Positions 41,488-49,225 of a DNA stretch of 64,000 nt are shown piece by piece. Below the pieces are notes generated by a model, which saw only the letters and a program-made list of their open reading frames with translations, was not told the origin of the DNA and ran no database searches. The position numbers and the translations under genes were made by a program. Location of the stretch: positions 1,231 through 65,230 of IMG/VR virus record IMGVR_UViG_3300032288_005833; one strand, 5' to 3'. Position 1 is the stretch's first letter; every line of letters starts with the position of its first letter. Source of the DNA: a virus (taxonomy: Duplodnaviria; Caudoviricetes).

Positions 41488-43755
41488 ATGCCGAAAATAA
41501 ACATATTAAATATTCTTGCTGGGGATCAACAAGCAATACTTGTAGACAAGGTAAACTACAATTTTGATCAGATTCTAACTGCAGGCGGTGGACCACAGGG
41601 ACCTCAGGGCATCAGGGGTGCTACTGGACCTATTGGACCGCAGGGAATACAGGGTCCAACAGGGCCTCAGGGATTAAAAGGAGCTAGATGGTATGTTCAA
41701 GTAACAGCACCATCTGCAGAAAATATCTTTCATACACCATGGGGAGAACCTGAACTTGGAGATTATTGGTTAGCAGGAGCAGATGATTCTAATCCTTATG
41801 GAATTTATGTTTATAACGAAACCGTACCAGGATCCTTAAATTGGGAATATTCTGGGGTATTCTTTGCTAACACTTCCGCATTTACCCCAGTAGATGACAT
41901 AAATCAAACTGACGAAAGAGCTTTAATACATGATACATTATTTAGTAATAGATATTCTTTAGTTCTAAGTGATTATGGAGTTACCGGATCTGAAACTGGA
42001 TTTAAATATAGGGACTTTAATAAATTTGGTATCAATGGAGAAAGAGCTAAGCTTAAAATAGCTACGGATTTTAATTCGCCATTTTTATCTCTTTTATCTT
42101 TCGGTAGAGCAAATCTGGATGATGGAAACAGAGCAAACACAGCATATAGTTTAAATAGAAATCCTAGATTTAGATGGAAAAATTTAACAGGAAGTGATTA
42201 TCATCTAGAGTTCTTTTCACCAACCGGTGATTATTATGTAAGCACCCCTAAATTTGTTATAGGGGGAACTGCTTCTAATTTTTCTGTTACAGGTTATAAT
42301 GCTACAGGAGATATGTTCAGGCTTACGACAAGCTCAACTACTTCTGTAAATCCTAGTAAATATTTCTTTGGCTTTGACTCTGCTGGATACGCAACAAAAG
42401 GATTACCATACAATCCAACAATAAGTGCAGGTATTCTTTCTGCTGATGCAAATAATTTGGATTATTACGAAGAAGGGGACTTAAAGGGAATATTTCAATT
42501 AAAAACATTCTCTGATGTCAGTGGCTGGAACAACACTCCAGACAATATTTACAAGAACGTAAAAGCTGCATACACAAGAATAGGAAATATAGTTCATATA
42601 GATTTTACTATTAAGGTAGATGTTCCTTCTTCGATCGGTCCATTCCTTGGTCCTGATGCATATCTGTACATTAAAGGATTCCCATACACGCCCGATTATA
42701 GCGGGTTAAATTTATTTAGTGGAAGTTTATCAATATCAAATTATACTAACCCTGTAATGCCTTTAATTCCACTAACTGGAATTTCATTATCGGGAGGAGT
42801 AACAACATCAATATTTGGTGCTTTTGCTAAAACATCGGATGGATTAGAAGATAGACTGTTCCTTTATAATAATTCAGGAACAAACCTAAAGGCAGACTCA
42901 AATCTTCCGGTAGGAGCTTGTTATATTTATGGAAGTTTTACGTACAAAACATTAGCCTCTGCTAGGGTTAGTACTATACTTCCTTCTCCAACTCCTCCTC
43001 CACCAACAACGCCAGCACCAACGCCAGCACCAACGCCAGCACCAACGCCAGCACCAACGCCAGCACCAACGCCAGCACCAACGCCAGCACCTGATTATTC
43101 ATTCGAGTGGGAATATGCAAATTATGTTGCAGGACCAACGCCAGCACCGCCAGCACCAACACCTGCGCCTACGCCAGCACCAACGCCTGCTCCTACACCA
43201 GCACCAACGCCAGGACCAACACCAGCACCAACGCCAGCACCAACACCTGCGCCTACGCCAGCACCAACACCTGCGCCTACGCCAGCACCAACACCTGCGC
43301 CTACGCCAGCACCAACGCCGGCACCAGTGGCATGTAATATAAGTAATCCTAGTTATGTAACAGTGAGCACACCTACTCAATATGGAACAATTTATCTTGC
43401 ATCAGACAGAAATATCACATTACAGGTATTTGGAGGAGTAACATATTCAGGTAGCAATTATGGATACCTTACAATAACTGGATATGGTGGAACACCAAAT
43501 CCAATGCCTAATCAGGTAAGTGCATACGCTGGATATGGTCAGTATACAACAATTGATCTAGGATTACCTGCAGGATATTATAGTTTCTTGCTGTATATGT
43601 CTGCTAACGGATCTTCTGGTCACACTGCTTCTATATCATGTGGAAGTTCAATAACATATAGTCCAACACCTAGTCCAACCCCATCACCTAGTCCAGGAAC
43701 TAGTGGAGGCGGAGGCGGCGGAGGCGGCGGAATTTCAGGGTTTAATCAAAATTAA
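41488..43755 (+). CDS. tail fibre-like protein (collagen repeat, PTPA tracts, poly-Gly C-terminus)
   Basis: [26 protein letters not shown]...[10 protein letters not shown] fibre motif; ends [17 protein letters not shown]. Confidence 0.75.
43009..43092 (+). repeat. 7 x 12 bp tandem repeat ACGCCAGCACCA (TPAP)
   Basis: six perfect copies plus one with a last-base change. Confidence 0.95.
43135..43326 (+). repeat. second PTPA tract (12/24 bp units)
   Basis: repeated ACACCTGCGCCTACGCCAGCACCA. Confidence 0.9.
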
Positions 43756-43762
43756 ATAATAA

Positions 43763-46724: not shown

Positions 46725-46729
46725 GGGAT

Positions 46730-49225
46730 ATGTCAAGCTTCACCTATACCAGTAAATTTTTCAGTCTTGCTCCATATTTACTTATGGAGTATAGATATGG
46801 TACACAGCCTAATCCTGAGAACCATTCAGTATTATATGGCCTTGATGCCATCGGGTTTGAAAAGATATCCAATGGATATTTTAATAATGCTGTACAAATT
46901 ACCAATAGAAATCAGGACACTCAGGCAACTGGTAACGTAAGAGATAGAAGTTCTGTACAAACCTCACAAAATACCTTTGTTAGATTAGATATTGATCGTT
47001 TAGAAGAATATTTGGATTATGATGATAAATTAACTGATGTCAGTAATCTTCCTGTAGAATTTGAAAATAACATCAATGTTTACTATGACACAGTTAGATA
47101 CCACTTTATAAGTGGCTATAATTTTGGTACTAAAGATGGAGCTATAGTACAAATTCAATTTCAAGAAAGAAACGGAAAGAAGGCCACTGTTTCTCAGATA
47201 ACATATGAGAAAGGTGATCTTGATATTACTACACCTAATCCTAATCCCATTTATTTCAATGCTGGGATATATGATCACTTTATAGAAGTTAAGATTCCTT
47301 CTTATGCTTCTATTACATATGATTATGATACTCAAGCTGTAAACGGACTAGCGGATCAAACTATTGCATCTAAGATTAGCTCTGATGGTGAAGGATTTAT
47401 CAGAAATCAGCCATTTAATGTTTCTCTTTATGAGATAGAATCTACACAGGAAATTAATGGATTCTATTATTACCAAACTGCTTTATTTACAGTTGCAACT
47501 GTTACTCCGTTCGACGAGTATGCAGATCTTGCTGCTAATATAGTTGAGAATAGCGATTATGATTATTTTGAATACTATCCTGCGTGGCAAGGAAATTTTA
47601 TAGAAGATTTTATATATGCGGAGAGTTCGTTGGGTAACACCTATTATATCATTCATGATATTGAATTAAAAGAGCAAATAGGACTTAGAAGAATTTCCAC
47701 ACAAAAAATTCAATTACTGCAGGACAAGGATTTTAACAGTCCTTATTTATATCGTCCTGTTGTTATGAATCCTAAAGCAACTAGCTTTTCGATTAATTAT
47801 TCAATGAGACTGGTTAATAAGATTAGCAACGTTTCGATATTAAGAACATCAACTGTGACTAGCACAGAGGTTGATAAGTATGGCCCAGGGGTTAAAAGAA
47901 TAAATTTATTACATCAACCATATCCACAAAAAGTTTATAACAAGGTAGTTGAACCTGTTATTTCTAAGGCATATACATTGAATGTAAATCCGATAGAAAG
48001 AGTTATTACTAAATATGTCCCAGCTTTCTTTGAAAGGGAGAACATAAATATTTCAGAAGAAAATTTGACTATTGACAATCTTGGGGGTTTAACCCAGTCA
48101 TCAACGGTGGATGCTTCAATAGCATTTGGTCAAGGGAAATCTAAGATTGTAATCAATCCATATGATAACTATTATAAGTTCAGGGTTTTTGTAAAAAATG
48201 ACGGGAAAGAAAACACATTATTAGATCTTGGATCGAATTCAGATTTCTATTTGGTATTTGAAGGAGGTGATAGCAAAACAGTAAAAGTATCTAGCTTAAT
48301 AAACAGCACGTTCCAAAATCCTAGTAAGGGAGAATTGGTATTTAGAGTTGTTGAATCTGATTCTAAAAAGGTAGCAGCATTCACAGGAAGAGATTTTCAT
48401 ATAGTTGCAAAAACCAATAATGGGATAGAAACATCAATCTATCACGGCTATTGGATTTTACCTAGTGAAAGAGACCAAAAGCCAGTTGATGTAACACCAG
48501 CAACACCTGCACCTGTACCTGCACCTGTGATAATCTCACCTGTACAGGCAACATCGGCTCCTGCGCCAGCACCAATTGCAACACCAACACCAACACCTGT
48601 TGCAGCACCAACACCTGTTGCAGCACCAACACCTGTTGCAGCACCAACTCCAACCCCAATAGCAACTCCGGTTCCTGCTGCTATAGAAACACCTGCACCA
48701 GTACCTTCTACACCAACTGTTGATATAATACCTCAACAACCTAAAGAATACTTTGATATTAAAACTGATCCTGTGATACTAAACGTTGAGCCGGCAGTTA
48801 TAACCGCTGTAACTGTTGAAGAACCAGTTATTGTTAAAAAGATGCCAATTAAGGCAGATATTGACACCCTAGCAAATTTAATCAAGATGGACGAGAATGC
48901 AGGTAAATCAGTACAAGAAGTTTGTGATTATTATACAGTTCCTGGAAATCCTGGAAATCTTCTTTATGATGGTATTACTGTTAGGTTCTTCTTGAATGCT
49001 GTTAGATTAGTTCACCCTGATATATTTGGTAGAAGAAGTGACGAATTTGCAATGTATGCAAATTATCTTGGGGAAATTTACGATCCGTATGAGAACAATA
49101 GATATCCATCAGGTGGTGGCGGTGGCGCTGGTGGTGGATATATTGGAGGTGGTGGAGTAGGATATAATATCTACGACAAAATACAAGACAGAAGTGAAAC
49201 GATGGGTCAAACCTTCTTTCTATAA
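46730..49225 (+). CDS. putative structural protein with Pro/Thr/Ala linker and Gly-rich C-terminus
   Basis: 831 aa; PTPVAA repeats; SGGGGGAGGGYIGGGG near the end. Confidence 0.6.
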   Translation: MSSFTYTSKFFSLAPYLLMEYRYGTQPNPENHSVLYGLDAIGFEKISNGYFNNAVQITNRNQDTQATGNVRDRSSVQTSQNTFVRLDIDRLEEYLDYDDKLTDVSNLPVEFENNINVYYDTVRYHFISGYNFGTKDGAIVQIQFQERNGKKATVSQITYEKGDLDITTPNPNPIYFNAGIYDHFIEVKIPSYASITYDYDTQAVNGLADQTIASKISSDGEGFIRNQPFNVSLYEIESTQEINGFYYYQTALFTVATVTPFDEYADLAANIVENSDYDYFEYYPAWQGNFIEDFIYAESSLGNTYYIIHDIELKEQIGLRRISTQKIQLLQDKDFNSPYLYRPVVMNPKATSFSINYSMRLVNKISNVSILRTSTVTSTEVDKYGPGVKRINLLHQPYPQKVYNKVVEPVISKAYTLNVNPIERVITKYVPAFFERENINISEENLTIDNLGGLTQSSTVDASIAFGQGKSKIVINPYDNYYKFRVFVKNDGKENTLLDLGSNSDFYLVFEGGDSKTVKVSSLINSTFQNPSKGELVFRVVESDSKKVAAFTGRDFHIVAKTNNGIETSIYHGYWILPSERDQKPVDVTPATPAPVPAPVIISPVQATSAPAPAPIATPTPTPVAAPTPVAAPTPVAAPTPTPIATPVPAAIETPAPVPSTPTVDIIPQQPKEYFDIKTDPVILNVEPAVITAVTVEEPVIVKKMPIKADIDTLANLIKMDENAGKSVQEVCDYYTVPGNPGNLLYDGITVRFFLNAVRLVHPDIFGRRSDEFAMYANYLGEIYDPYENNRYPSGGGGGAGGGYIGGGGVGYNIYDKIQDRSETMGQTFFL
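48593..48646 (+). repeat. 3 x 18 bp ACACCTGTTGCAGCACCA (TPVAAP)
   Basis: perfect tandem copies. Confidence 0.9.

Follow-up and report, generated by a model that had tools for sequence, protein, structure and literature searches.

Type A bacterial intein-like (BIL) domains are described, in the passages available on them, as forming a thioester at their N-terminal junction and cleaving at their C-terminal Asn (PMC4031507, PMC7664689). For BIL2 of the Tetrahymena thermophila BUBL1 locus, a passage in PMC8616854 reports a further outcome: acting without ATP and through a 'nucleophilic lysine' in its C-flank, it forms an isopeptide between a Lys ε-NH2 and a C-terminus, and it also conjugates its N-flank to a separate protein, a Ras GTPase. 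Here we analyze a Hint domain of this kind at the C-terminus of a 409-aa protein encoded by a tailed phage (Caudoviricetes). The DNA studied, hereafter the window, is a 64,000-nucleotide stretch (positions 1,231 to 65,230 of IMG/VR record IMGVR_UViG_3300032288_005833) with a GC content of ~33% that makes up nearly all of a 65,230-bp viral contig (CheckV completeness 24%). Hint or 'intein domain' labels already stand on many phage tail and fibre proteins, for which we found no functional study, and the Hint/BIL fold and its chemistry are known. The new observation is the tail behind the domain. Sequence comparison points to BIL-type cassettes at the ends of phage surface proteins that form a large clade, as yet uncharacterised, in which a short tail holds a single conserved Lys.

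The Hint domain and its flanks

The precursor (44416-45645, plus strand) is modular. An N-module (residues 1-78) is followed by a Pro/Thr tract (79-138), a Cys-containing module with a Pro-rich linker (139-230), ten Gly (231-240; codons 45106-45135), the 150-aa Hint domain (45136-45585) and a 19-residue tail (45586-45642). The Gly run lies directly N-terminal of Cys241 (45136-45138) and forms the N-flank of the candidate scissile bond, Gly240-Cys241. The domain also contains T321-F-E-H324 (the TxxH motif), Asp346 and a terminal His389-Asn390 (45580-45585), and its +1 residue is Leu391. The tail has one Lys, Lys396 (codon 45601-45603), at position +6 inside an NVDK-like core retained in the closest relatives, and then a short second Gly run (45613-45624) encoded by GGA codons only. 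An earlier reading made from the sequence alone (the sequence-only reading) had given this architecture, from the Pro/Thr tract to Gly10 and a 150-aa Hint with Cys1, TxxH and His-Asn, and its numbering of C241 and N390 is right. It had also argued that the domain is not a canonical mobile intein, with which we agree: +1 is Leu, and 150 aa leaves no room for an endonuclease.

Is this a genuine Hint domain, as that reading held? Pfam alone fails as a basis for the call, since its two Hint models, at 20.7 and 20.9 bits, fall short of their cut-offs. The assignment is borne out by the full catalytic set together with profile, fold and conservation. One PHROG annotated as virion structural proteins covers residues 239-394 (5e-14). 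In an alignment of 36 sequences (A1), Cys241, His389 and Asn390 are invariant, and Gly238, Gly240, Thr321, His324 and Asp346 are found in at least 90% of the sequences. Searched against the PDB, the profile matches BIL2 of Tetrahymena BUBL1 (6y75/6tmm) at E 4e-22, with Gly-Gly ahead of position 1 in the aligned BIL2 chain, and the Clostridium thermocellum BIL (2lwy) at 1e-19. An AlphaFold2 (AF2) model of residues 226-409 has a mean predicted local distance difference test score (pLDDT) of 87.7 in the domain and a predicted template modelling score (pTM) of 0.81; the Gly run and the tail are below 50. The top PDB matches of this model in Foldseek are BIL2 (template modelling [TM] score 0.78-0.80 on the target) and 2lwy (0.84), then mini-inteins and Hedgehog; there are 65 PDB matches at E ≤ 0.001, and those listed are all BIL, intein, Hedgehog or Vint domains. 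In a comparison with predicted viral structures, proteins of uncultured tailed phages rank highest, their labels being fibronectin type III, PASTA, collagen or 'Hint domain containing'.

The model and its Foldseek matches thus have the fold of the HINT superfamily, a beta-strand horseshoe with adjacent N- and C-junctions. The sequence has the features of type A BILs, namely an N-terminal Cys, TxxH in block B, a C-terminal His-Asn, no nucleophilic +1 residue and no endonuclease. Type A BILs sit in variable regions of non-conserved proteins, and so does this domain: in one close relative, L004 (a 245-kb contig, 86% complete), the module preceding the domain is swapped, and in another, L005 (a 74-kb contig, 26% complete), the Hint itself is replaced. 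In sequence, the immediate flanks resemble those of the BUBL-type BIL in two respects, a Gly run that ends in Gly-Gly before Cys241 and a C-flank Lys, Lys396. By every sequence criterion applied the domain is type A BIL-like, and it is very probably a self-processing BIL-type cassette. Three other assignments were considered and excluded. A class 1 intein does not fit a terminal domain with Leu at +1 and a 19-residue C-flank. A Hedgehog Hog domain does not fit the invariant His-Asn, a motif that Hog domains are not known to have at their end, or the short tail, and the window protein gave no reported match to PF01079. The Pretoxin Hint model PF07591 scores 20.9 bits against a cut-off of 27.7, and no toxin domain follows the Hint.

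The domain appears to be under purifying selection. In the one sequence pair compared, the window and L004, the ratio of non-synonymous to synonymous substitution rates (dN/dS) is 0.12 for the Hint (18 synonymous and 9 non-synonymous differences); for the N-module it is 0.185. A model of the full-length 409-aa protein, made from a five-sequence alignment, has a pLDDT of 33, so that the N-module and the Cys-containing module are without a confident fold; the protein has no Pfam ubiquitin match.

The lysine of the C-terminal tail

Relatives were collected with the Hint core only, from 1.84 billion representatives clustered at 50% identity. The search returned 2233 relatives at E ≤ 0.001 and 489 at E ≤ 1e-10. 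The 150 best of the 2233, with 163 full-length domains, served as an unbiased sample; Cys1 is present in 160 of these domains and His-Asn in 156. In 137 proteins the last Hint ends in His-Asn, and in 110 of them the tail that follows is 3-30 residues long. Lys occurs in 109 of these 110 tails. In 1000 resamplings of equal-length windows from the same proteins the corresponding number was 23.7 ± 4.2, with a maximum of 36. When tails of 1-30 residues are counted, 113 of 117 hold a Lys, exactly one in 109, and 29 end in it; the binomial expectation is 30.4 of 117 (Lys being 3.7% of residues). Four of the six one-residue tails consist of Lys, and of the 20 proteins with longer C-flanks 17 have a Lys within ten residues. 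Arg is not enriched (14 observed, 17.5 expected), and the next most widespread tail residue, Glu, occurs in 55 of the 110.

The same pattern recurs in other sets. All 70 distinct tails of a first homologue set, obtained with a query that included the Gly run, contain Lys. So do the tails of three cultured-phage examples, and each of the ten complete Hint genes on genome contigs has one tail Lys. (These contigs form 11 loci, L034-L044, ten of them from Bacteroidota metagenome-assembled genomes.) The position of the Lys shifts, the first one standing at +4 to +6 in 68 of the 110 tails and at +1 or +2 in 18, and the +1 residue is highly variable, mostly A (27), K (24), V (19) or I. By these figures, the tails have almost nothing in common except one Lys, which would make it the clade's one near-invariant feature outside the domain. 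That it moves argues against a fixed structural contact, and that there is exactly one argues against a mere charge bias. Some representatives (P0159, P0082, P0200, P0083 and P0172) have tandem arrays of up to seven Hints with linkers one to three residues long between them: K, KC, KG or KGA in most cases, RC or R in others.

What of the N-terminal side? Gly at -1 and -3 is nearly invariant in alignment A1, and it was at first tempting to regard a Gly run before Cys1 as universal. This was rejected, as the query region of the first search held the Gly run and thereby introduced a bias. In the Hint-core sample, Gly occupies -1 in 69 of the 163 domains, the others having chiefly Ser, Pro, Thr or Ala, and a run of at least three Gly precedes Cys1 in 37. 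Since overall Gly frequency is 8.7%, Gly at -1 is strongly enriched; on these counts the run seems an enriched, not a defining, feature of the clade. The genome-contig loci are uninformative on this point, having been found with an alignment (A4) whose first pattern includes the Gly before Cys.

On what proteins do these cassettes sit? Pfam and PHROG scans of the N-terminal parts covered 45 of the 150 representatives, hand-picked among the longer proteins. Most of these parts match no named family and a few match BACON, fn3, Calx-beta, LCCL, Flg_new or MBG; five of the 45 have tail, tail-fibre or virion PHROG matches outside the Hint. A tblastn search found the domain in 49 phage records, 43 of them Erwinia jumbo phages, where it forms the C-terminus of annotated tail or virion proteins adjoining tail-fibre genes.

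Module exchange, the Gly-tailed fibre and possible fates of the predicted thioester

The near-invariant tail Lys and the Gly-to-Lys bond reported for BIL2 together lead us to favour an isopeptide between Gly240 and Lys396. We propose, tentatively, that the phage is a large one, probably infecting Bacteroidota, and that its 44416 gene encodes a fibre-like virion protein with a C-terminal self-excising type A BIL-like cassette that joins Gly240 to Lys396 in cis. By the established chemistry of the family, Cys241 would attack the Gly240 carbonyl to give a thioester, and cyclisation of Asn390 would cut the domain from the tail. The ε-amine of Lys396 would then resolve the thioester in cis, a step suggested by the family-wide tail Lys and the BIL2 precedent. 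A short branched peptide would end up bonded to the C-terminal Gly of the 240-residue N-part, and the 150-aa Hint would be released. On this proposal the single, positionally flexible Lys of each tail would be a tethered acceptor; that Lys396 plays this part is plausible and far from assured. The sequence-only reading had invoked ubiquitin-like chemistry that dispenses with E1 and E2, in which a C-terminal Gly-Gly is activated as a thioester and then transferred to an amine; such chemistry is reported, in the passage cited above, for BIL2, the closest solved relative (PMC8616854), and homology thus lends support to that element of it.

Several points weigh against the proposal. Four of the 117 tails have no Lys, and some tandem-array linkers carry Arg instead. 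The representatives, although clustered at 50% identity, are still related, so that the counts above are not fully independent. Passages on type A BILs without a +1 nucleophile state that these give mostly cleavage products, and ascribe such splicing as occurs to the free α-amine of the C-fragment, for which Lys is not needed (PMC7664689, PMC4031507). The tail Lys could instead dock the tail, assist Asn cyclisation or undergo later modification. The processing and the Gly240-Lys396 bond are themselves predictions, and with pLDDT below 50 in both the tail and the Gly run the AF2 model is silent on whether the Lys can reach.

How stable is the association of the cassette with the protein that carries it? 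L004 has one Hint and the same gene order as the window; its N-module and Hint are conserved (90-95% identical, the Hint 95%), but the middle module is unrelated, the window's (44830-45051) being replaced by a longer one (7179-8519 of L004). L005 has the N-module and the window's own middle module and no Hint; in its place stands another domain, whose last eight residues are five Gly and three others. The Hint is thus present in the window, in L004 and in a further relative, P0006, and absent in L005. Hint tails of relatives end in ...GGAGGGQPPFNL and ...GPGGPTPPYNP. On the evidence of L004, L005 and the fibre orthologues described next, modules are swapped at Pro-rich (Pro/Thr) and Gly linkers, the Hint is an optional terminal module, and a Gly run plus a few residues is the generic C-terminus of the window's lineage, with or without a Hint.

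The fibre gene (41488-43755, plus strand), which lies upstream, encodes a 755-aa collagen-like protein with long Pro/Thr/Ala tracts and PHROG tail-fibre matches over its collagen-like repeats (residues 30-86). Its translation ends, as the sequence-only reading had it, in nine Gly (43705-43731) and ISGFNQN (43732-43752), preceded by a Pro-rich linker, ...PGTS. Eight window open reading frames (ORFs) of at least 80 aa have Gly runs of at least four, and runs of nine or ten occur only in the fibre and Hint genes. This pairing reflects homology and not chance, since both genes contain the same 63-nt cassette of Pro-rich linker and poly-Gly DNA (43668-43730 on the plus strand, direct-repeat family D4, 79% identical to 45069-45131). 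Both long runs alternate GGA and GGC codons and are GC-rich against a 33% GC genome, a codon pattern consistent with a shared, exchanged linker cassette. Fibre orthologues in L004, L005 and a metagenome locus, L029, have Gly runs of nine to eleven and then five or six variable residues (G9-MSGIG, G9-MSGIN and G11-SIPQFE). The likeness of the two C-termini (GGGGI...QN) on which the earlier reading had built is real in the window; it is kept neither in the fibre ends nor in the Hint tails of the relatives. The fibre tails have neither Lys nor another obvious nucleophile. We also considered the fibre's Gly tail as the scar of a lost Hint, which is unsupported: the tail is free of Lys, and no fibre homologue with a Hint turned up, the C-terminal module of the fibre (residues 608-755), used as a query, having given zero homologues among 6401 candidates. 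Module shuffling at low-complexity linkers accounts equally well for the shared 63-nt linker. The Gly run before Cys241 is, in our assessment, a flexible small-residue N-flank from a linker cassette common to the fibre gene, and no mark of a ligation partner.

How else might the thioester be resolved? It could simply be hydrolysed while Asn390 cyclises, leaving the N-part with a free poly-Gly carboxylate end, with Hint and tail discarded after service as a removable cap or folding aid; other fibres and tailspikes carry self-cleaving C-terminal chaperone domains. The terminal position of the domain before a short tail (3-30 residues in 110 of 137 proteins) suits such double autocleavage, as does the Hint-less L005 orthologue, which indicates that the N-part can exist without a Hint, and BILs without a +1 nucleophile are said, in the passages already cited, predominantly to cleave (PMC7664689, PMC4031507). 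A discarded tail, however, gives no reason why 109 of 117 tails, unrelated in other respects, should each hold a single Lys, and leaves the one-residue Lys tails unexplained, and we consider this outcome rather unlikely, albeit one to be taken seriously. The conserved Lys is equally without a reason if, after Asn cyclisation, the N-terminus of Leu391 attacks the thioester and gives a linear product of Gly10 and the 19-residue tail, with an end like the fibre's. This is the α-amine mechanism proposed for type A BILs, and 2lwy, the second-best structural match, is described in a passage of PMC4031507 as ligating without nucleophilic side chains; the tail's second Gly run and its end, loosely resembling that of the fibre, would also accord with it. 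With a +1 residue so variable in the family and a likeness between the two protein ends that is lost in relatives, such splicing is improbable.

In the sequence-only reading the cassette was a tagging system, the Gly-terminated N-module being passed in trans, be it to a Gly-tailed fibre, to another protein of the virion or to an amine on the host surface. The location of the protein in a fibre module and the reported conjugation of the BIL2 N-flank both to its own C-flank and to Ras GTPase (PMC8616854) speak for transfer of this kind. We scanned L001-L026 and the window for non-Hint ORFs of at least 100 aa with a C-terminus of at least four Gly and no more than 12 further residues. Of the 24 loci L001-L024, L004 and L005 alone, which are closely related to the window, have such ORFs, and none of the 11 loci L034-L044 has a Gly-tailed ORF within 3 kb of its Hint gene. 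The conserved linkage of Hint genes to Gly-ending fibres, whose absence the reading had named among its own grounds for refutation, was not found in these loci. L005, moreover, retains Gly tails on both proteins with no Hint in its 74-kb record (26% complete). Because Gly-tailed neighbours are confined to one lineage, persist there in the Hint-less L005 and have no nucleophile in the fibre tails, a Gly-tail system is unsupported. The tail of the Hint protein itself, with its near-invariant single Lys, argues for an acceptor in cis, one that would compete with any acceptor in trans. Transfer to another molecule is, we think, somewhat more improbable still than α-amine splicing. Last in probability comes a selfish or decaying intein-like insert without a phage role. 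Its patchy presence (in the window, L004 and P0006 but not L005) and the flanking repetitive linker DNA, which could mediate gain and loss, would suit such an element. Its catalytic residues are all intact, however, its dN/dS is as low as that of the N-module, the terminal architecture recurs in thousands of proteins and a homing endonuclease is absent, and the idea can be given very little credence.

If resolution by the tail Lys is right, phage surface proteins would commonly mature by way of an E1/E2-free, ubiquitin-like Gly-Lys linkage, hitherto reported from a single ciliate locus, and the cassette would be a compact natural self-ligating tag for protein engineering. The clade is large, with its 2233 representatives, and the single tail Lys gives a concrete mechanism. 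One may speculate further, with much less confidence, that thousands of phage surface proteins carry, in a Hint and some five tail residues that include one Lys, a natural isopeptide ligase of the Gly-to-Lys type that needs no ATP and seals the C-terminus in cis. As other amines can capture the same thioester, the cassette might also covalently staple virion proteins together or attach fibres to host-surface amines. If there is autocleavage only, the cassette would still represent an additional solution, unrelated to the removable C-terminal domains of other fibres.

Genomic setting and described counterparts

Between 35.8 and 49.8 kb the window holds a block of large structural genes, all on the same strand, which encode in order a 1891-aa protein, the 755-aa fibre, a 214-aa protein, the 409-aa Hint protein, two small proteins and an 831-aa protein. 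The 1891-aa protein (35781-41456) matches phrog_31887 at 6e-35. Its relatives in the phage collection, all distant, occur only in Lak megaphages, in Tenacibaculum phages PTm1 and PTm5 and in uncultured phages of 460-735 kb (one of 462 kb), and these relatives suggest that the window comes from a large phage of Bacteroidota.

The 214-aa protein (43763-44407, plus strand), encoded between the fibre and Hint genes, is conserved (83% identical in L004, 74% in L005) and has no Pfam, PHROG or PDB match. By eye, a Gly-Gly ... Asp-x-Asp stretch resembles minimal nucleotidyltransferases, and a protein atlas places NTP_transf_2 clusters at ranks 8 and 11 (scores 0.93-0.94, few shared features); a nucleotidyltransferase function is a weak lead only. 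A synteny search anchored on this protein alone found nothing, and one with its alignment found only two already known IMG/VR relatives. A metagenome scan gave five loci: L029, L030 (a copy of the L005 contig) and three weak partial matches at 34% identity, which were not used.

The 831-aa protein (46730-49225, plus strand) has a Pro-rich tract and no family match in Pfam and PHROG scans. The sequence-only reading had grouped it with the fibre and the Hint protein on account of that tract and a Gly-rich C-terminus. The tract and a Gly-rich patch near the end are there; the patch, identical in L004 and L005, is internal, lying 26-37 residues before the C-terminus, and is not a comparable Gly tail. 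We accordingly do not count this protein within the Hint feature. Also in the block is a 247-aa coiled-coil protein (45936-46679) with hydrophobic stretches at each end and a weak match to an Rz-like spanin PHROG (1e-4), conserved in L004 and L005. Minus-strand or off-frame ORFs of 60-90 aa at 42974-43380 and 48462-48739 overlap Pro/Thr-coding repeats and have repetitive Leu/Val/Ala or Cys/Trp/Arg compositions; they were rejected as genes, being read-through artefacts of those repeats. A RuvC-like resolvase gene (49780-50448; phrog_159, 1e-17) follows directly after the structural block, and beyond it lies a gene for a Cys-rich protein (51508-52560) with a by-eye likeness to zinc-finger primases.

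Literature searches, in which the primary BIL papers were represented by passages that cite them, turned up neither a study of Hint domains in the tail or fibre proteins of phages nor a report that a Lys is conserved behind BIL domains; the matches, so far as their passages go, concerned terminase or ribonucleotide-reductase inteins or general intein biology. The nearest phage counterparts are 'intein domain' tail proteins of Erwinia jumbo phages (for example vB_EamM_Y3 gp110), Phage NCTB and Alcaligenes phage Afa-NA1, which are annotated and for which the searchable literature yielded no characterisation. They belong to the same Hint clade and share its C-terminal position, tail-fibre neighbours and a Lys in a short tail. 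They differ from the window protein in being 27-37% identical, in having another N-part and in the Gly run, which only NCTB has.

Among bacterial domains, Pretoxin Hint (PF07591) shows a weak Pfam similarity and is likewise a Hint that releases a flanking part, but PT-HINT precedes a C-terminal toxin domain, whereas the window Hint is followed by 19 residues only. The Hedgehog Hog domain (1at0), a lower-ranking fold match, is also a C-terminal Hint that makes a Gly-Cys thioester and hands its N-part to a nucleophile; it has a sterol-recognition region, in contrast to the invariant His-Asn and short tail of the window's clade. The Clostridium thermocellum BIL (2lwy) is closer, sharing the Hint fold, Cys1, TxxH, His-Asn, the lack of a +1 nucleophile and of an endonuclease, and an occurrence in variable, non-conserved proteins. 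What sets the window Hint apart from type A BILs is its place at the extreme C-terminus of a phage structural protein and its short tail with one conserved Lys, a pattern of which the BIL review passages searched make no mention. Tetrahymena thermophila BUBL1 BIL2 (6y75, 6tmm) is the best profile and fold match, has Gly-Gly before position 1 and, in the passages available, is reported to form a Gly-to-Lys isopeptide without ATP. It is a eukaryotic domain flanked by folded ubiquitin-like domains, whereas the window Hint has a fibre module and a Gly run on its N-terminal side and a 19-residue flank with its single Lys on the other.

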